IMG/VR virus record: IMGVR_UViG_3300015214_000024
Location: 329,787 to 393,786 of that record
From: a virus
Taxonomy: Duplodnaviria; Heunggongvirae; Uroviricota; Caudoviricetes
Length of the DNA stretch: 64,000 nt
Strand: one strand, 5' to 3'
A program made the translations under genes and the position numbers. Under the pieces are notes generated by a model, which was not told where the DNA came from, ran no database searches, and was given only the letters and a program-made list of their open reading frames with translations. Positions 2,188 to 41,682 of this stretch are shown in pieces (within the stretch, counting starts at the first letter, position 1; each line of letters opens with the position of its first letter).

Positions 2188-3039
2188 TTATCCTGGTAAG
2201 TTGTTTGTTATACCCAGCAATTTTGGCAATAACATTTTTTGGGCGCTTATGTTGGTTGCTGATACCACATAGCCTTTGCCGCCACCATTAATGCGAGTAA
2301 TATCTAAAAGAATATACATCGCATTTCCATCTTCGCAGTCAAATAATACTTCTTCTGAATATCTTCTTTCACCACTGATTAAAAAATTTTGTAAATTTAT
2401 TTTAAACTCTTCACGCTGTGATTGGTCTATAAACTCCAACCATCCTTTTCGATAAAAATCTCTTTCCAACCAACCTAACATTCCTATAAGCATCTCATTC
2501 ACATAAACACAATTACCATTATTATCAATTTTTAAAAGCCCAATCGGAGATGCTTTTGCTAAGCTTTGATACATCTCTTGACTTTCTTCCAATTCTTGTG
2601 TTCGTTCTTTAACTAAATCTTCCAACTTATTCTGTTGAGTGAACACAAGCATTTCTAATCTTATGCGTTCGTGTGCTTCTTGAAGCGCTTTTAATATTTC
2701 ATCAGGAGATAAACTTTTCTCAATGTAATCAAATGCACCCTCTTTCAAAGCCGTTATTGCATTTTCCTTTGTTGCATAAGCAGTCAATATCAATGTCAAT
2801 ATGGGCCGATTAATCAAATTAATACTTTCAAACAAATCCAAGCCATTATCTCGTCCTAATTTCAAATCTAAAATGATAATATCAGGACTAAATTCGTGAA
2901 GCTTGGTTATTGCTGATTTCAGATTGAATGCTGTTTGAATTTCCACTTTCATCATAGATGCGATACCGACCAAGGAATCGGAAAAATCCTTATCGTCTTC
3001 TACAATCAACAATTTAACTGGATTCATTTCAATACCCAT
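2188..3039 (-). CDS. Response-regulator receiver (REC) + coiled coil + PAS domain protein, no output domain
   Basis: REC motifs LLIVEDD, IIILDLKL (phospho-acceptor Asp), LILTAYA, FDYIEK; linker LEDLVKERTQELEES; PAS start YQSLAKASPIGLLKIDNNGNCVYVN. Confidence 0.9.
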   Translation of the reverse strand: MGIEMNPVKLLIVEDDKDFSDSLVGIASMMKVEIQTAFNLKSAITKLHEFSPDIIILDLKLGRDNGLDLFESINLINRPILTLILTAYATKENAITALKEGAFDYIEKSLSPDEILKALQEAHERIRLEMLVFTQQNKLEDLVKERTQELEESQEMYQSLAKASPIGLLKIDNNGNCVYVNEMLIGMLGWLERDFYRKGWLEFIDQSQREEFKINLQNFLISGERRYSEEVLFDCEDGNAMYILLDITRINGGGKGYVVSATNISAQKMLLPKLLGITNNLPG

Positions 3040-3057
3040 TCAAACTTACTTCACGAG

Positions 3058-3064
3058 TATTTAT
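3058..3064 (-). promoter_or_regulatory. T4-late-type promoter (ATAAATA) upstream of the REC-PAS gene
   Basis: tatttat on + strand, about 20 nt upstream of the start; same motif precedes many structural genes. Confidence 0.6.
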
Positions 3065-3087
3065 TATAATGTTGTTCTAAAGGTAAT

Positions 3088-3786
3088 TTACATTTTTTTG
3101 TTGAATTTTAGATCTACTTGAGCATACTTATCAAGTTCACCGCTTAATGTGGCGCAGCCGTTGTGTTTTTTCATTATGTCTTGGACAATTGATAATCCCA
3201 ATCCTATACCAAATGATTTGGTAGAAATTAACGGTTCAAATAGTTGCTCAGATGACGAAGTGTCAATTCCTGGACCATTGTCATAGATAGAAATTATAGT
3301 ATGTTGATCAGTAATTGATGAAGTAATATTAACGTATCCAGCACCTTTGCCGACTTCTGGATCCATTATTGCTTCAATTGAATTTTTAAGAATATTTAAA
3401 AATACTCTATGCATACGATCAGGATCGATATTTAAATGGAGATTGGGGGAGACATCATTGTTAATTTGTATTGATGAGGGCTTAACTAAATCCTCGAGCA
3501 CTTTATCAATTAATTGACTTATATTAATTCGTCGCTTAATCAATTTAGTATGTCGAGTAAAATCAAGCAAATCATTTACTATGTTATTGCATCGATCTAT
3601 ATTTCTAAAAATTCTTGATAAAATCTCATCAATTTTTTCATCAACAACGTATTCTTCATTTAATCGATTTTGCATTAGGAATAGTGAATTGCGAATAGTG
3701 CCCAACGGGTTTTTCAACTCGTGGGCAACTACCGCAGTCAATTCACCTAAAATTTCAAATTTCTGCTTGTTTTGGTCATTAGACAT
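3088..3786 (-). CDS. Sensor-less histidine kinase (HisKA + HATPase_c, NtrB-like)
   Basis: H-box AHELKNPL, N-box VFLNILKNSIEA, G1 DNGPGI, F-box LFEP, G2 GIGLGLSIV; no TM or sensor domain. Confidence 0.92.
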   Translation of the reverse strand: MSNDQNKQKFEILGELTAVVAHELKNPLGTIRNSLFLMQNRLNEEYVVDEKIDEILSRIFRNIDRCNNIVNDLLDFTRHTKLIKRRINISQLIDKVLEDLVKPSSIQINNDVSPNLHLNIDPDRMHRVFLNILKNSIEAIMDPEVGKGAGYVNITSSITDQHTIISIYDNGPGIDTSSSEQLFEPLISTKSFGIGLGLSIVQDIMKKHNGCATLSGELDKYAQVDLKFNKKM

Positions 3787-34405: not shown

Positions 34406-34435
34406 AAATTAATGGGCCCGAAGGCCCATTAATTT
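34406..34435. terminator. Intrinsic terminator with cUUCGg tetraloop
   Basis: aaattaatgggcc-cgaa-ggcccattaattt; UUCG loop on minus strand as in T4 terminators. Confidence 0.85.
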
Positions 34436-36807
34436 TATGCTACGTGGTCTGATCCGATCTTTCCTTCATCCCACAAAATGTTAAATGCATCGTTGATCGC
34501 ATCACGAGCCATTGGGTCACTCATCATAAAGCTATATTTGTGACCATTTGGGTAGCTGTCAATGCCAGTTTCGATTATTTGGTCTACGTCATCAATTGAA
34601 GGGTTGAATTCTTCAATTTTCTCACCCATCTTTTCAACAATTGTCAAATATGCGTCATTCATTACTTGAATAAACATTGGATCTTCAGCCAATTCGTTTG
34701 CATACAAATTTTCACTCGATACTACGAAATCTGGTGCTTCAAAAAAATCTTCATCTTCAGTCAATTCACCAGTCAAATCCATCGAACTACCAGCCTTACC
34801 ACCAGTTAACAAGCCAATAAAGCTTCTGTCATCGATTTCAAATTCATATAGTACACGATGTACCACATCCAATTCCAATATAGCGTCTATTGCATCTCTG
34901 GCTGTAGAAGCTAGGACAATAACGGTCAAAGCATTGTCACGCTCCAATTCTGCCACCATTGGTAAGCCGCCCATATTCAGCTCGTTTCTAAATTTATCAA
35001 CTGGACGACCATCCGCCATTAAAAATAATGCTGATTCCACATCAGTCATACCTTTATGCTCGATTTCAATGCGTTCTGGTGTGAAATCTACTGAAAGTAT
35101 GAATGCTCGTTCAATGTCAGTCTCAGTAAGTGTCGATTCGTCCATTTGACCTGACTTACGATGTTCTTTTTTTGCTTCCATCCAGCCATCTTTTCCTGAT
35201 GGATCTGTTGGGCAAGGTTGGCCATTCTCGAAAGCTTCATATCCAGATTCCCAAGCATCACGAGCATATGCTTCATCAAGCTCATCGTCAAATTCTTTTA
35301 AACCATATTTTTTAAAATAATCTATTAATTCTGGCTTTAGTTTTCTAAATTCACTATATGGTTTATTATAAAAATGCTTACTAAAAACATGATCAGCTGC
35401 GTCATGAGCATAATCGAAATGTCTTATAGCGTTGTATATGCTTGATCGCATAGTTTCACCCGTTGCATCTTTATCATCCAACATTCTTTCAAATTGCGAT
35501 GTTCCTTCATCAATTTCTTTTTTTCGGGCGTTTTTGTTATGCTTACGCTGTTTAAAACGTTCCTGGCGATCCCAATCATCATCGTCAGCATCTGGATCAT
35601 ATCGGTAATCTTTACCTTCATCAAAATCTCGCATCATTCGATCATCACGCATTTGGTCATATTTGTAATCTGCATAATCAGCTTCTTGATCGGAAGCGTC
35701 TTGTGTTGCTTCATCAAACAATCGATTTGCGTCCTTAGGATTTACTACGTCCATTAAACTGTGATCTGTTCCTTTTTCGCATACATCAGTAATTACTACA
35801 CCGCCTTGGTAGCCTACTGACGGATCAGACTCTTCAATTTCATAATGAACAGTCACTTCAACATCGTCGCGATCTGGTAAGTCGATATAACTATCAAAGC
35901 TACTCCCTGATGGCTTAAATTTGGCCTCTTCTAGATCTTCTCCAATTTTAAATTTGCCGTCCTGGTCAAATTCAATGTCATTTTGATCGTCAGTTGGTGC
36001 TGGACCATAATTATCACCGTCATCATTTCCTACACCATTATCTGAAGTAGTAATTTCGCCAGTTGTGCTGCTACCGTTGCCACCTTCAGCTATTTTTCGA
36101 TATTCTTCAACAACATCTTCCTTAATATTATCAACAATCCAACTATTCATATCTTCTACAGAATCAAACGTACCAATGTGAATTGGTGCCTCGCTCTCAT
36201 CTTCAGATGGAAATTCAATCAATTCAACTTTCCCGCTACTAATATCATAACACAATGGCAAATATGAATGGTGATAGATACCTTCACTTTCATAGGTCCA
36301 ATCTGAATCATTATCTGATTCTGCTACTTGGTCTGAAACGGTAACTTCATATTCATCGTTCTTTTCGAAATTACTTGGTTCAATTACTGGAGTCTCTTCA
36401 TTCACTGGTGTATTGTATGCTTTTTGCATCCATTCATCTTGATCTTGAGCTTCAACATTGGTATTGATAATGACTGGCTTATTGATCATATCATCATAAT
36501 CAGCATAGTGGTATTTGCCAGTATCTTTAGTCAATTCAGCTGCTTCCTTTTCAGGATCGCCGGTCTTCGGAAGGATAACGTCTTCTGACACTACCTTAAG
36601 CATCATTTCTGACAAATTAACAATACGATGTTCATTCATTTTATTAGTTCCTTCACGTTTAACCTTTTCAATTGTTACGGTTTTTCTTCCTCTACGATAG
36701 GCAAATGGTAAAACTTTATTCTGATCGTGAAATAATGCCAATCTTTGACCAGTTTCTTTATCTTTTACTATCCAATCGTGCCCATCATCAAATGGTTCTT
36801 TTTCCAT
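34435..36807 (-). CDS. Large acidic mosaic protein, putative head-internal polyprotein
   Basis: 790 aa; small modules separated by VSED, VNEE, VAES, IAEG, LEEA, FDEG, IDEG, LDEA, MDES, LTED motifs. Confidence 0.55.
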   Translation of the reverse strand: MEKEPFDDGHDWIVKDKETGQRLALFHDQNKVLPFAYRRGRKTVTIEKVKREGTNKMNEHRIVNLSEMMLKVVSEDVILPKTGDPEKEAAELTKDTGKYHYADYDDMINKPVIINTNVEAQDQDEWMQKAYNTPVNEETPVIEPSNFEKNDEYEVTVSDQVAESDNDSDWTYESEGIYHHSYLPLCYDISSGKVELIEFPSEDESEAPIHIGTFDSVEDMNSWIVDNIKEDVVEEYRKIAEGGNGSSTTGEITTSDNGVGNDDGDNYGPAPTDDQNDIEFDQDGKFKIGEDLEEAKFKPSGSSFDSYIDLPDRDDVEVTVHYEIEESDPSVGYQGGVVITDVCEKGTDHSLMDVVNPKDANRLFDEATQDASDQEADYADYKYDQMRDDRMMRDFDEGKDYRYDPDADDDDWDRQERFKQRKHNKNARKKEIDEGTSQFERMLDDKDATGETMRSSIYNAIRHFDYAHDAADHVFSKHFYNKPYSEFRKLKPELIDYFKKYGLKEFDDELDEAYARDAWESGYEAFENGQPCPTDPSGKDGWMEAKKEHRKSGQMDESTLTETDIERAFILSVDFTPERIEIEHKGMTDVESALFLMADGRPVDKFRNELNMGGLPMVAELERDNALTVIVLASTARDAIDAILELDVVHRVLYEFEIDDRSFIGLLTGGKAGSSMDLTGELTEDEDFFEAPDFVVSSENLYANELAEDPMFIQVMNDAYLTIVEKMGEKIEEFNPSIDDVDQIIETGIDSYPNGHKYSFMMSDPMARDAINDAFNILWDEGKIGSDHVA

Positions 36808-36809
36808 AA

Positions 36810-38279
36810 TTATCCCTTTGACGAAAATTTATCTAAAGCTGCATCCATTTCTGCCAAAGCATCATCATATGATATTTTATATTTAGCTGAAATTTGATGC
36901 ACTGCTTGGTCTGTCGCAACTCGATGGCCCATCCCCTGGCCAATTGTTTTCATACAATCGACCCATATATTATACATATCTTTGGCGCGCGAATCACCTT
37001 CGCTCTCATTAACAAACTGTGCTTGGCCGTAAAACTCTTGAGCTTTTATTGTTTGCATATCATCCACTAACTTCTTATTTCTTGCCAACATTCGATCTAT
37101 TGTAATTTCATTTGGATTTTTAGGAATAAGCTTATCCTTTTCTGCCAAATCAGTTACCAGTTCTTTAATCTCTTTATATGATTCAGAATTGGCAAATTCA
37201 GAACAAATGTCCTCAATTGCATCGTGAACGCTGAGCTTATGACGTTTCACGTCGAGGGATTTCATTCTCCAAGCGCGCGCAATATCGTTTCGTTCTTGAT
37301 CTTCAATAAATTCCAATACCATTGACTTAATGGGCCAGGACAAATGCTTTGACACATCATAGGCTATGCCAAGTTGTAGCATCTCATTAACTATTTGTGG
37401 TAAATTTTCTTTCGAAGCGTTATTGGCCTTTTGCAAATATTTTGAAACAATATTCTCACCATATTCTTCATCCAGTCTGTCTGATGGTACTAATGTCATC
37501 GCCCAATGCTCAAAATCAAGTGATTCCTTCAATGGCTTTGGTGCAAATCGATTAACAAAATCATTATATCGACGTTTTGATGAATAATTTTTCTTCAATT
37601 CTTCTCTTAAAGATATGTAGTGAGCTCGGATCCAAAATTTCTTTTCTGGGTCTTCTTCAGTAAGATGTTGTGATCTTAAACCTTCCATTGTTTCAACCAT
37701 CTCTAAAATTTTATTTGAGATTGAATCGCCATAAAGGCCTTCATTATTTAAATGATAAGCAATTGCTCTCGCAGCATGTAAATTTTCATGAGGGATTTTA
37801 AATCGTTCACCGTCCGAAGTTTCGACAAAAATTTGCTTGATGTTTTTAGTTCTGGCGCCGCGCTTTTCTTCATTAACAGCGGTTGAGTGGCGTATAATCA
37901 CTTTTGCGCCGCCAATTTTCTGATAGCTTGATTTAGAACTACCATAAAGATTCTCCAAAACTGGAGTGTTCGAGAAATCTTTTGGAGTCAACTTTTTACC
38001 GTATGTTCTCAATTTATATTTGTATCTATTGTTGAGTGCTATTTTACGTAATCTAGACCCATAACGGTCTTCAAAACTTTTTGCATCAACACCATCACTT
38101 AACGATACTTCAAGTGTTTGTTCAGTATCATTAATTTCAATCATGATATTGTCGTTCTTCAAAAAGAAACTTTCAGCCTCTTCTGGCTCATAAACAATAT
38201 TGCCTTCATGGTTATATATGGCCATTGGTTCACTACCAATAACCTGATATATCTCCTTGGCAAAACCTTCTTTAGACAT
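36810..38279 (-). CDS. Putative virion/head protein downstream of terminase
   Basis: 489 aa; GSSKSSYQ...IIRHS...IFVETSDGERFK...ARAIAYH core; ATAAATA at 38306-38312. Confidence 0.6.
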   Translation of the reverse strand: MSKEGFAKEIYQVIGSEPMAIYNHEGNIVYEPEEAESFFLKNDNIMIEINDTEQTLEVSLSDGVDAKSFEDRYGSRLRKIALNNRYKYKLRTYGKKLTPKDFSNTPVLENLYGSSKSSYQKIGGAKVIIRHSTAVNEEKRGARTKNIKQIFVETSDGERFKIPHENLHAARAIAYHLNNEGLYGDSISNKILEMVETMEGLRSQHLTEEDPEKKFWIRAHYISLREELKKNYSSKRRYNDFVNRFAPKPLKESLDFEHWAMTLVPSDRLDEEYGENIVSKYLQKANNASKENLPQIVNEMLQLGIAYDVSKHLSWPIKSMVLEFIEDQERNDIARAWRMKSLDVKRHKLSVHDAIEDICSEFANSESYKEIKELVTDLAEKDKLIPKNPNEITIDRMLARNKKLVDDMQTIKAQEFYGQAQFVNESEGDSRAKDMYNIWVDCMKTIGQGMGHRVATDQAVHQISAKYKISYDDALAEMDAALDKFSSKG

Positions 38280-38335: not shown

Positions 38336-39100
38336 TTAGATTTGGTCAATGAATTGACATTCATATTCTTGGGCAAACCGATCAGGTCCTAATGATTTCA
38401 AGGCATTTTGCTTAAAACTTTCATCACGGTCTGGGTGATCATTCCATCTAATAATAAATGGATGAAATCCATTGTTACCAGATACTGCACCTTGCCAGAG
38501 TTTATAAAATAAAGTATTTTTATTGCTAGGAGTAGATGTAACAATTATCTGTGATCCAATAGATGCACACGGAATAATACTTTGCCACAGCTCTGTGGCA
38601 TTATTTTGGTCAGCAAATGCAAAATCATCAAAATATATTAAATTCAGTGACCGGCCACGAGCACTATGTGGCGAATTAGTAGTCAATACGATTAACCCGG
38701 ATCCATTTTCAAAACGAAGTTCACGCTTGTTTCTAAGATCAATTTTTGGTTTTAAAAATGTAGGGAGTTGATCAAATGCAAATAGTAGACGGTTCAAAAT
38801 TTCTTGACCGTAAGCGATATTGTTACCTATTATAGCTATTTGAAAATCCAATTTAAAGATCAAATTCCATAACATATATGCAGTTGCTATTGAGGTATTT
38901 CCCATCTGTCGGGCTGTCATCCCAATGCACATTTTGCTATTTTCATATATGTTGATTATATTTTTTTGATAATCATAAAGATTGAAATACATTGATCCTT
39001 TAACTGGATGTTGAATCTTAAAATAATTTTCAATAAAATATGTGATACTGTCGTAACATTGTATCGTTTCAATTGCTTCGTATCTAGTAATAATATTCAT
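38336..39100 (-). CDS. Stand-alone terminase-ATPase paralogue with degenerate Walker A/B
   Basis: Aligns with the adjacent TerL N-domain (YFIENYxKIQHPVKG, TSTP, RFxxExxCxF) but RQMGNT replaces RQVGKT and FDDFAF replaces LDEFAF; no nuclease domain. Confidence 0.85.
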   Translation of the reverse strand: MNIITRYEAIETIQCYDSITYFIENYFKIQHPVKGSMYFNLYDYQKNIINIYENSKMCIGMTARQMGNTSIATAYMLWNLIFKLDFQIAIIGNNIAYGQEILNRLLFAFDQLPTFLKPKIDLRNKRELRFENGSGLIVLTTNSPHSARGRSLNLIYFDDFAFADQNNATELWQSIIPCASIGSQIIVTSTPSNKNTLFYKLWQGAVSGNNGFHPFIIRWNDHPDRDESFKQNALKSLGPDRFAQEYECQFIDQI

Positions 39101-39109
39101 AAGTAATCC

Positions 39110-40672
39110 TCAAAGGATGAACGGCATTGGCTGATCGTCATTGTCGTAGTCTTCATCATCGTATCCATCGATTGAGTCACTAAGACGATCATACACTTCG
39201 TCATCATAATATTTGACTTCGTCTAACATTCTGATAGCATTGAATAGGCTCATAACCAAGTCGTCTTTACACCCAACTTCAGCTTCAAAACTTGATCCTT
39301 TTGCGACGAAGTTTTTTAATTCATAGATTAATTTTTTACTATGAATTTTTATTTTACCAGCTTCGATCATTCTTTTCATTTTTGAACAACCGTTTCTCTT
39401 AGTTTTGCCAGTAGTTTTAAATCCTCGATATTTTCGTTTTGGTTCAGATATGAATGTGCCCTTGAAATTTTCTTCACCAGTATCCTCAATAATTCTACTA
39501 ATTGCTTCACCATTGTTATTGGCTTCTACTGTATAGAAAATTTCCGGATCACTGTTCTGACCAGCATCTTTCAAAATATAATAAATTTCATCCAATATTT
39601 GTTGTAACACTCTGACCTGAACTCTGTCAACTGATTTGTCATCTGACCATTCAGCAACTTGTTCAAATTCTGGCAATTGCCAAACAGTAATTGCGGCATT
39701 GTCGCCGCCACCAATGCCAATTGATGGATCGAGCGATACCAGGAATGACTTTCCTATTTCTGGCTCTTTAAACCATCGTATAGATCCAGTAGTCAAAACT
39801 GGATCCATCCCTTTCATATTTTCCAAAACAATTTGGTCAATTAACGTATCAGATTCTGAAATAAATTCACACTTAAATTCGCGTCTAAATCTAGCGTCAC
39901 CAAGCTGTGCTCTCATTTTCGCTTCAAATTCGTCATCTCGATCTGGCGCTTCATCCCATTCCACAGTAAAGGAAGCAAACCCATTAGACCCGCGAGATCC
40001 GATTCCATTATCACACGCTCCGCGCCAAGTATTGGCGAACAAATCGTCAGCGTTGTTTGGAGTTGAAGTAATGATACAGCTACCACCAGTTGACAACGTC
40101 GGAGCGAGAGCAGTCCAAAATTCTTCAGCAATTCGACGCTCAACGAATGCAAATTCGTCCAAATAAACTAATGAAATAGCAAGACCACGGCCAGTCTTTT
40201 CAGTAGTGGCAGTAGCAATAATACGTGACCCGTTGTCAAAGGTTAAACTTTGCTTATTTTCTGTAATTGCTCCGCAACGAATAAAATCTGGCATCGCCTG
40301 ATATGCGTGATATATTCTATGCATAATTTCACTTGCACCAGAAAATTGGTGGGCAGCAATTAATATTGTTTTATCCATATTAAACATCGCATACCAAAGC
40401 AGATATGCACCAGCAATGGTAGTCTTACCGACCTGTCGAGGCAAAAGATGTATGGAAAATTGATTTTCGTGGAAAACTTTGACCATTCTTCGTTGATATG
40501 GTCTAAGTTGGAATAAAATATCACCCTTAACTGGATGCTGAATCTTTACATAATTCTCAATAAAATATGCCGGATCAGAATGGCAGCGTCTGATCTCGTT
40601 GATTTGATACTGTGTAAAAACTTCTTCTTTATGGGCTTTCTTACTTGAAACGCCTGATGCCGCATTGGACAT
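39110..40672 (-). CDS. terL: Terminase large subunit (T4 gp17-like)
   Basis: PRQVGKT Walker A, YLDEFAF Walker B, TSTP, nuclease LDPSIG...DDLVM; ATAAATA at 40703-40709. Confidence 0.95.
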   Translation of the reverse strand: MSNAASGVSSKKAHKEEVFTQYQINEIRRCHSDPAYFIENYVKIQHPVKGDILFQLRPYQRRMVKVFHENQFSIHLLPRQVGKTTIAGAYLLWYAMFNMDKTILIAAHQFSGASEIMHRIYHAYQAMPDFIRCGAITENKQSLTFDNGSRIIATATTEKTGRGLAISLVYLDEFAFVERRIAEEFWTALAPTLSTGGSCIITSTPNNADDLFANTWRGACDNGIGSRGSNGFASFTVEWDEAPDRDDEFEAKMRAQLGDARFRREFKCEFISESDTLIDQIVLENMKGMDPVLTTGSIRWFKEPEIGKSFLVSLDPSIGIGGGDNAAITVWQLPEFEQVAEWSDDKSVDRVQVRVLQQILDEIYYILKDAGQNSDPEIFYTVEANNNGEAISRIIEDTGEENFKGTFISEPKRKYRGFKTTGKTKRNGCSKMKRMIEAGKIKIHSKKLIYELKNFVAKGSSFEAEVGCKDDLVMSLFNAIRMLDEVKYYDDEVYDRLSDSIDGYDDEDYDNDDQPMPFIL

Positions 40673-40735
40673 ATTATAATACCTCTCAGCATTCTTCGTC
40701 TATATTTATGTGGTTGTTTTCAACAAAAGATCCAT

Positions 40736-40764
40736 TTGACATTAAATAGCTATTGCAGTAATCT
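40736..40764 (+). promoter_or_regulatory. Sigma70-type promoter, probably giving a leaderless mRNA
   Basis: TTGACA-17 nt-TAATCT; ATG at 40772 follows the -10 box after 7 nt, with no SD. Confidence 0.6.
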
Positions 40765-40771
40765 TGATTTT

Positions 40772-41278
40772 ATGAATTATACTGAACGATATTCTTACGG
40801 ATCTGACCGATATGGCGAAAGCCGAATTTTGACGTCATATGATCGATTTGATTTAGTCGACGAGTATCTATCATCGTTATCTAAAACCATATCACACACC
40901 CAAGCAGAATATTTTAATATGGTAATTTCTATATATGGTGAAATTTGGACCAAAAAGCGCGATCCAATCGACATCGATTCAATGAATTTAGAGCGAAATC
41001 GAACTATAGAAGACATACACAATGTATCTGATTTAACTAGGATAACCCCCATTCGCGACTTTATCTATAACGAACAAGCAAAAAATGAAGGATTTGGACT
41101 TTTACTAATGAAGGAAATTAGCCTCTACGGGCTAGTAGATTTATATCCTGAATTCTTTGGAGTTGAAGTAGGTGCGGTCGTTTCTGCAGGGACGTTGTTT
41201 TGTCAATGCAATAGTTTAATTAAAGTCAAAGGACCTGATGCTGAAACGTTTAGAAACGTTCGGAAACTTATATTATGA
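40772..41278 (+). CDS. Hypothetical protein with C-terminal GPDAET motif
   Basis: Start moved from TTG 40736 (inside the -35 box) to ATG 40772. Confidence 0.65.
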   Translation: MNYTERYSYGSDRYGESRILTSYDRFDLVDEYLSSLSKTISHTQAEYFNMVISIYGEIWTKKRDPIDIDSMNLERNRTIEDIHNVSDLTRITPIRDFIYNEQAKNEGFGLLLMKEISLYGLVDLYPEFFGVEVGAVVSAGTLFCQCNSLIKVKGPDAETFRNVRKLIL

Positions 41279-41682
41279 CAAACGATAAATTTGAACATTT
41301 TATATCTATTATGACTGTCTATGATGGGTTCTCAGATACTAATTATCCATCAATTAAATTATGGTCATTAGAATTGGATGAAATGCGTCAGGAAGACTTT
41401 TCCTTTAACTGTATATTCAATTCAACATCCAAGGCAATATTTTCAATTATTGAAACCGAAGATGATTTAAAACTTCACATTGAACTAATGGTAGCAAAAT
41501 ATTCAGATTTAAATGCTGAAGACTATCCTGAATACACGAAAGGCGACTTTGAGTTCCAAAGTCGCCTTGTCGGTTTTGCAATTTGTCATCAATTCAATAA
41601 TAGATTTTCATCTCTTCCAATTGTTGAATTGTCAGGTCCAGATGCGGAAACTATTGTAACTTCATTAGTATTACTTTCCTAA
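41275..41682 (+). CDS. Hypothetical protein with C-terminal GPDAET motif (probable paralogue)
   Basis: ATGA-coupled; shares YPE and GPDAET...L(I/L) features. Confidence 0.65.
   Translation: MTNDKFEHFISIMTVYDGFSDTNYPSIKLWSLELDEMRQEDFSFNCIFNSTSKAIFSIIETEDDLKLHIELMVAKYSDLNAEDYPEYTKGDFEFQSRLVGFAICHQFNNRFSSLPIVELSGPDAETIVTSLVLLS

Follow-up and report, generated by a model that had tools for sequence, protein, structure and literature searches.

Stand-alone phage proteins resembling the ATPase domain of the large terminase (TerL) have been noticed before. In the Rak2-like jumbo phages, a 'truncated large terminase' (CBB_274, GAP32_268 and BF_0272) was noted with no function given, and was described only as an 'incomplete' domain, the loss of catalytic residues not being mentioned (Buttimer et al. 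2017, PMC5259590). In bacteriophage T4, vs.8, a stand-alone protein resembling the terminase ATPase, has intact Walker A and B motifs and is toxic together with EcAvs2 (PMC13601566, 2026). The ATPase domain of TerL alone activates EcAvs2 through a recognition that involves the ATP-bound active site, and this site is what both Avs2 and Avs3 read (PMC13601566). Literature searches on TerL paralogs and on pseudo-ATPases turned up the CBB and Avs2 papers and no others.

Here we analyze an intact 254-aa open reading frame (ORF) located at 38336..39100 on the minus strand of a 64,000-nucleotide stretch of Caudoviricetes DNA, hereafter the window. The encoded protein shares its fold and conserved structural motifs with the ATPase domain of T4 gp17 (2o0h, 2o0j, 3cpe; Terminase_6N), from which it differs by the absence of the Walker A lysine, the catalytic glutamate, the C-terminal part of subdomain II and the nuclease domain. 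Like the Rak2-like 'truncated large terminase' (235-254 aa), it comprises a gp17-type ATPase domain only and is encoded beside terL; the Rak2-like proteins likewise end just past an E-x-x-C boundary and lack the Walker A lysine and the catalytic glutamate. The gene order differs, since the Rak2-like gene (CBB_274 of vB_PcaM_CBB and its counterparts in GAP32 and Serratia phage BF) lies upstream of terL and overlaps it whereas the window paralog lies downstream, and the CBB_274-type protein is only ~28% identical to the window protein. Two other proteins, Xoosp13_242 and XYS97501 of phage Phosso, are similarly dead, restricted to the TerL ATPase domain and terminated at the same point; Xoosp13_242 is very divergent (~29% identity to the window protein) and its gene is found upstream of terL, unlike that of the window. 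T4 vs.8, too, is a phage protein in its own right with homology to the TerL ATPase domain, but its Walker motifs are intact where the window paralog lacks the Walker A lysine. When the T4 genome was searched with the profile of the family (A4) at E <= 1, gp17 alone matched and vs.8 went undetected, which makes the latter at best a remote relative. The family is barely described but was already noticed, and the window paralog is an added member.

Genomic context of the short paralog

The large terminase gene of the window (39110..40672, minus strand) encodes a 520-aa protein carrying both Terminase_6N and Terminase_6C (Pfam; phrog_36964, E 1.7e-110), whose intact GKT and DE motifs and nuclease domain give it the appearance of a functional enzyme; GKT is present in all its orthologues of 80-93% identity. 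The paralog lies downstream of terL in the same orientation, with 9 nt between the terL stop and the paralog ATG at 39100. At this junction (39101..39111, minus strand), a Shine-Dalgarno sequence GAGGA (39111-39107) overlaps the terL TGA and is followed by a 6-nt spacer. In a pattern scan, neither the 9-nt gap nor the ends of the two genes showed a terminator-like site; both ORFs contain some internally, one of them being a palindrome at 38583-38600 in the paralog. Because of the short gap, the Shine-Dalgarno sequence overlapping the terL stop and the lack of a terminator-like site between them, both genes are expected to be co-transcribed, and translation of the paralog is probably coupled to that of terL. 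A promoter-like site directly upstream of the terL start (40673..40702, minus strand; TAGACG-18-TATAAT, 10/12) is a consensus match only.

The next gene, in the same direction and 56 nt past the paralog stop, encodes a 489-aa virion structural protein (36810..38279, minus strand; phrog_13484, E 1.7e-28), which places the paralog in a late/structural module. The neighbourhood corresponds to a late and replication region of the T4 superfamily, with a gp4-like head-closure protein, virion proteins, TerL and the paralog, followed by the 489-aa structural protein, a 790-aa ORF, a gp32-like SSB and UvsX. The 790-aa ORF (34435-36807, minus strand), situated between the structural gene and that of the gp32-like SSB, is very acidic and has no Pfam or PHROG match. 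Directly upstream of terL, the minus-strand late module is interrupted by two plus-strand ORFs of 180 and 135 aa (40736-41682), neither of which matches a PHROG, at the position that gp16 occupies in T4-like phages.

The window (C39:1661-65660) belongs to a 145-kb contig of ~37% GC in a 4.13-Mb assembly otherwise of ~65% GC. Further contigs of 33-41% GC are present in this assembly (C90, 244 kb; C87, 87 kb; C67, 62 kb; C38, 41 kb; and others), and together the low-GC contigs look like one giant phage mis-binned into a bacterial MAG. No TerL-like sequence other than TerL and the paralog was found in the 4.13 Mb. A protein identical to the paralog is recorded on another contig, of 465,559 bp.

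Domain content, motifs and predicted structure

BLASTP aligns residues 2-253 of the paralog with residues 17-273 of the adjacent TerL at 37% identity and 59% positives, with an E value (5e-69) that excludes a chance similarity. Terminase_6N is its sole Pfam domain (E 7.5e-20); Terminase_6C gave no match in Pfam and the nuclease domain is missing. Its PHROGs matches are to large-terminase families only, and none of the small terminase (TerS) profiles in Pfam and PHROGs matches it. The C-terminus, CQFIDQI, lies at the end of the Rossmann-type subdomain and stops six residues past a conserved E-Y-E-C; the counterpart of that motif in TerL, at residue 273, immediately precedes the linker to the nuclease half. 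The sequence-only reading of this DNA had described an intact ORF downstream of terL that matches the ATPase domain and ends at the domain boundary, a description borne out by these comparisons.

The same reading had proposed that two catalytic residues were replaced while structural motifs persisted despite the divergence, and the alignment with TerL agrees on each point. The Walker A motif reads RQMGNTS instead of RQVGKTT, with lysine changed to asparagine, and the catalytic site FDDFAF instead of LDEFAF, with glutamate changed to aspartate. The YQ adenine motif, the Walker A Arg, Gln, Gly and Thr, the Walker B Asp and the STP C-motif (coupling motif) are all retained. Where a functional TerL would present a Walker A GK[TS], a catalytic glutamate and an RNaseH-like nuclease domain, the paralog has GNTS, DD and no Terminase_6C. 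A deviant Walker A motif with an upstream lysine, as in lambda gpA, was considered and rejected, the alignment displaying no lysine upstream of the paralog P-loop. We infer from these motifs that the paralog would be unable to hydrolyse ATP and would work by binding.

An AlphaFold2 model of the paralog, built on a 53-sequence alignment, reached a mean pLDDT of 95 and a pTM of 0.91. Its best Foldseek match was the T4 gp17 ATPase domain 2o0j (TM 0.90), and the top PDB matches (2o0j, 3cpe and 2o0h) had TM values of 0.88-0.90 on the query at ~30% identity. As modelled, the paralog is the N-subdomain I of gp17 with the N-terminal helices, devoid of the rest of subdomain II and of the nuclease half.

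A family of short proteins limited to the TerL ATPase domain

A search of 5.8 billion clustered proteins yielded the same-length relatives P0002 and P0018 (60-61% identity, 255 aa, Walker A RQMGITS, catalytic site DD), P0003 (54%, 254 aa, RQMGMTS, DE) and P0004 (40%, 260 aa, RQVGITS, DN). All share an identical C-terminal motif and all lack the Walker A lysine. The question raised by the sequence-only reading, whether the substitutions are conserved in homologues, receives a divided answer: the loss of the lysine recurs in P0002, P0018, P0003 and P0004, but the replacing residue differs, being N in the window paralog, I in P0002 and P0018, M in P0003 and I in P0004.

A profile search was also made of 1.84 billion cluster representatives, and its best 150 matches included 32 short clusters (at 50% identity), 26 of which (221-308 aa) are without the Walker A lysine; the six that retain it group with the lysine-less ones. 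Residues were counted in 35 short sequences, namely the cluster representatives, the window paralog and four further short proteins taken from phage records and loci. The Walker A Arg64 is kept in all 35, Gln65 in 32/35, Gly67 and Thr/Ser69 in 34/35 each, the adenine Gln45 in 34/35, and the Walker B Asp158 and C-motif Ser189 in 30/35 each. The Walker A Lys68 is kept in 6/35, otherwise T, I, L, M, N, S, Q or D, and the catalytic Glu159 also in 6/35, otherwise D, N, S and others; both are invariant in full-length TerLs (202/202). The loss of lysine and glutamate together with the retention of the other pocket residues indicates that the short family gave up catalysis and kept the fold.

One could argue that the paralog still binds and hydrolyses nucleotide by means of non-canonical residues or of a residue supplied in trans, given that the remainder of the pocket (Walker A Arg, Gln, Gly and Thr, adenine Gln, Walker B Asp) is retained and that six short members keep both lysine and glutamate. 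We consider this highly improbable: the lysine position varies freely with no conserved substitute, the alignment of the short proteins contains no new family-specific conserved Lys or Arg column, and the catalytic glutamate that is invariant in TerLs is lost as well.

Family members measure about 230-300 aa and end just past E-Y-E-C, as does the window paralog, and the short proteins of CBB, Phosso, Xoo-sp13 and an IMG/VR contig (L004) all stop where it stops. Identity across the family falls to 21-30%, and intact proteins of the same length persist at that divergence. When metagenome, genome and viral contigs were scanned with the family alignment, the only matches were genuine TerLs (<=41% identity) and one new paralog, that of L004; no close orthologue of the window TerL was found in the viral contigs, the best being 46% identical. 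In many TerL homologues (P0005, P0006, P0007, P0009, P0151, P0156, P0176 and others) intein-like insertions were observed, one site being right after E-Y-E-C, the exact end point of the short paralogs, and another inside the P-loop. The domain boundary is thus a preferred target of mobile elements, and this may be relevant to the origin of the short genes.

The end point, the loss of the catalytic residues and an evolution faster than that of TerL could all be taken as signs of a functionless relic, left by a partial terL duplication or by a mobile-element break at the domain boundary and still undecayed. This explanation is largely refuted and appears very improbable to us. Intact proteins of the same length and with the same end persist down to 40% identity in the clade of the window and 21-30% in the family, the structural model is confident, and the pocket residues are selectively retained; in the CBB subfamily, the ratio of non-synonymous to synonymous substitution (omega) is 0.24 and the gene is syntenic across Mimasvirus, Eneladusvirus and related jumbo phages. 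The maintained pseudo-ATPase postulated by the sequence-only reading finds support in the same intact relatives, all without the lysine, and in the omega of ~0.24 of a related syntenic subfamily. Neutral decay in relatives, which that reading had named as evidence against it, is not what is observed, the relatives being intact with their pocket retained, in protein databases that hold called ORFs only and under-count broken copies. In all, the window paralog is very probably a version of the TerL ATPase domain that folds stably and has no catalytic activity, belonging to the 'truncated large terminase' family of T4-superfamily jumbo phages.

Distribution in sequenced phages

CBB_274 matches the family profile, reads GAGLST and YDS at the two catalytic sites and ends at the same boundary. 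Its orthologues occupy the same location in GAP32, BF, the pEa_SNUABM phages, Kaldavass, XbC2 and fHe-Yen9, so that the synteny of the short paralog is held across Mimasvirus, Eneladusvirus and related jumbo phages. As a rule the short gene neighbours terL. In CBB, GAP32 and BF it is placed upstream of terL with a 14-nt overlap, and in L004 directly upstream of it. In the Xanthomonas phage Xoo-sp13, Xoosp13_242 (MN047793 153244-153939; L198:3232-3927) is also directly upstream of terL (profile E 5.8e-27; Lys to Thr). In the Sinorhizobium phage Phosso, XYS97501 (PV764938 249808-250653; L212:5809-6654) is encoded 52 kb from terL, near a capsid gene (profile E 2.0e-24; Lys to Ile), and a complete 480-kb IMG/VR phage carries its short paralog 55 kb from terL. 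Other relatives encode TerL without a short paralog: XacN1, complete phages of 350 kb and 517 kb, and an incomplete (68%) relative of 237 kb. This patchy distribution and the 52-55 kb that separate the two genes in Phosso and the 480-kb phage indicate that the paralog is not a core part of packaging.

Xoosp13_242 and XYS97501 are both annotated as 'terminase small subunit'. Neither matches a TerS family, and the label, apparently given for reasons of size, position or a hit to a terminase, is probably a misannotation. Public records name the family variously as 'large terminase', 'small terminase' or 'hypothetical'. The annotation nevertheless raises the idea that the paralog is a TerL-derived subunit fulfilling the roles of TerS in DNA recognition and TerL regulation. 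In Xoo-sp13 and L004 it does stand at the position of gp16, directly upstream of terL; XacN1, which lacks it, carries at that position an unrelated ORF without homologue in Xoo-sp13; and the gp16-type TerS profile (PF11053), positive in phiM12, gave no significant match in the assembly of the window, Phosso, Xoo-sp13 or CBB, an 'absence' that is weak evidence since TerS proteins often escape detection by sequence. The XacN1 gene (ORF256) had itself been considered as a family member and was rejected, not being TerL-like. Several observations make a TerS equivalent improbable: in phiM12 the genes of a gp16-like TerS, of a short paralog and of TerL follow one another; in CBB, GAP32 and BF a conserved gene of 166 aa precedes the paralog, at a TerS-like position; related complete giant phages do without the paralog; and neither its sequence nor its model gives any sign of a DNA-binding or ring-forming domain. 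The 166-aa gene (CBB_273), directly upstream of the short paralog in these three phages, is a candidate TerS.

In phiM12 (NC_027204 46609-47483; L217/L219) the gene following the gp16-like TerS and preceding TerL encodes a 207-aa TerL N-terminal fragment, shorter than the family of the window, that keeps GKT and DE. It groups with full-length TerLs and a lysine-retaining fragment, P0192, apart from the dead short paralogs, and may represent a separate event.

Phylogeny and origin

A recent tandem duplication of the adjacent terL was rejected as the origin of the window paralog, whose identity is 37-40% whichever TerL is compared, its own TerL being no nearer a relative than the rest. The orthologues of the paralog are just as far from the window TerL. 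The copy of the neighbouring gene envisaged by the sequence-only reading does not hold in that local sense; on sequence comparison the paralog belongs to an older family.

How many times this family arose depends on the tree, and the deep nodes are weakly supported. A 252-taxon FastTree unites all 32 short proteins in one clade with no full-length TerL inside. After the addition of divergent isolate sequences, a 123-taxon FastTree loses its backbone (support 0.15) and still contains a clade of 12 with the window paralog, CBB_274 and the Phosso gene (support 0.989). In a 60-taxon IQ-TREE, the window paralog and P0002, P0018, P0003, P0004, P0141 and P0179 form a group with UFBoot 100; a 15-taxon clade joining the window paralog, CBB_274 and Phosso has UFBoot 62 and is nested in a larger group of 21 taxa, all of them short (UFBoot 81). 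A further set of short proteins, among them L004 and Xoo-sp13, falls with the TerLs encoded by the respective phages (UFBoot 81). The single clade of the FastTree and the two short groups of the IQ-TREE leave a choice between one origin and several. The placement of the window paralog with CBB_274 is likely.

Rate and mode of evolution

The short paralog diverges much faster than the genes around it. In the clade of the window, TerL orthologues are 80-93% identical (75-97% in the N-domain) and paralog orthologues 40-61%. P0004 (40%) and the TerL P0020 (86%) are both recorded on one Logan contig and, to judge from its 7,582 bp alone, their genes are probably neighbours. Between CBB and GAP32, amino-acid identity is 95% for RNaseH, 93% for gene 273 and 97% for TerL, as against 57% for the short paralog; the CBB-BF comparison gives 86-89% for the flanking genes and 40% for the short paralog. 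At these loci (L235, L233 and L234, about 2598-3305, in CBB, GAP32 and BF), the short paralog is the sole hypervariable gene of an operon conserved at 86-97%. Its amino-acid evolution is at least 10 times faster than that of TerL.

This evolution is fast but constrained, as seen in the related CBB subfamily. For the syntenic CBB-GAP32 pair, the Nei-Gojobori method (NG86) gives the short paralog an omega of 0.24 (dN 0.325, dS 1.34), a rough estimate at dS >1 that comes from Rak2-like relatives and not from the clade of the window, whereas its neighbours have omega values of 0.04-0.07 (TerL 0.04) and dS of 0.55-0.84. Since the dS of the paralog exceeds that of its neighbours, the locus may exchange alleles, and the comparison suggests allele replacement by recombination in CBB, GAP32 and BF. 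In the clade of the window, the N-terminal helices (residues 1-27) are conserved as in TerL (ratio 0.92); the C-terminal and P-loop segments come next in constraint and the Rossmann middle is far freer (ratio 0.33-0.49).

Possible roles: packaging partner or conflict gene

Late co-expression, a preserved fold, a TerL-like N-terminal helical surface and lost catalysis favour a non-catalytic partner of packaging. Transcribed with terL and probably coupled to it in translation, the paralog would be made late and at a similar level, and would act as an accessory, non-enzymatic partner of the packaging machinery; its conserved N-terminal helices and retained pocket surface would engage TerL or a TerL partner, and such engagement would modulate the assembly or activity of the terminase. 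We put forward this accessory role as the likeliest of the readings considered, yet as a tentative proposal that may well prove wrong. That the paralog would itself be a motor subunit is unlikely.

Accessory distribution and very fast evolution are typical of conflict genes. Found beside a near-invariant TerL, these two features fit a conflict gene better than a machine subunit. The paralog could be an immune-conflict gene, a mimic of the TerL ATPase domain interfering with host terminase sensors (Avs1-3, Upx) by unproductive binding or by shielding the ATP site of TerL, the loss of lysine and glutamate hiding the mimic itself. In its favour are the very fast evolution within a conserved operon (57% versus 93-97% between CBB and GAP32, 40-61% versus 75-97% in the clade of the window), a dS of 1.34 versus 0.55 in flanking genes that suggests allele exchange, the patchy, accessory distribution, the co-expression with TerL, and the fact that the ATP-bound active site of TerL is what Avs2 and Avs3 read (PMC13601566). 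Against it, the ATPase domain alone activates EcAvs2 and vs.8 is toxic in its presence, so that binding is expected to trigger the sensor and not to block it; the average omega is below 1; and a literature search found no anti-Avs activity of any TerL-like protein. Weighing both sides, we hold such a gene to be rather unlikely, though a contender.

The immune decoy suggested by the sequence-only reading is disfavoured in its simple form. By analogy with the ATPase domain and vs.8, both of which trigger EcAvs2, a faithful look-alike would be expected either to set off the sensor or to escape its notice, and in neither case to protect. The loss of the ATP-site residues may make the paralogs invisible to terminase sensors. 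An inhibitory or shielding role towards these sensors is conceivable, and the papers searched on TerL-like proteins and Avs yielded no precedent for it.

Fast evolution and patchy distribution would equally suit a weapon directed at other phages, in the form of a TerL fragment with a dominant-negative effect on the packaging motor of related phages in the same host cell but none on its own. Inactive subunits can impair ring ATPases of this kind. We judge this interference quite improbable, because there is no evidence of specificity, the tight coupling with its own terL exposes the own motor first, and the paralog lacks the C-terminal half of TerL.

Significance

The large terminase ranks with the most conserved proteins of phages, and bacterial pattern-recognition immunity has it as a main target. 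A large, widespread and persistent family of TerL look-alikes, in which only the two residues of hydrolysis are lost, co-expression with TerL is seen and amino-acid change is an order of magnitude faster than in TerL, would be either an unrecognised component of giant-phage packaging or a player in the arms race over terminase sensing. It is unlikely, but worth stating, that the dead paralogs constitute a widespread counter-defence class, neutralising terminase sensors (Avs1-3, Upx) or shielding TerL, in which the catalytic residues were lost to escape ATP-dependent recognition; if true, this would explain the hypervariability of the paralog inside an otherwise conserved packaging operon. As the family has received passing mention only, it would be worth defining properly and testing for function in culturable hosts, which CBB, GAP32, BF and Xoo-sp13 make feasible.
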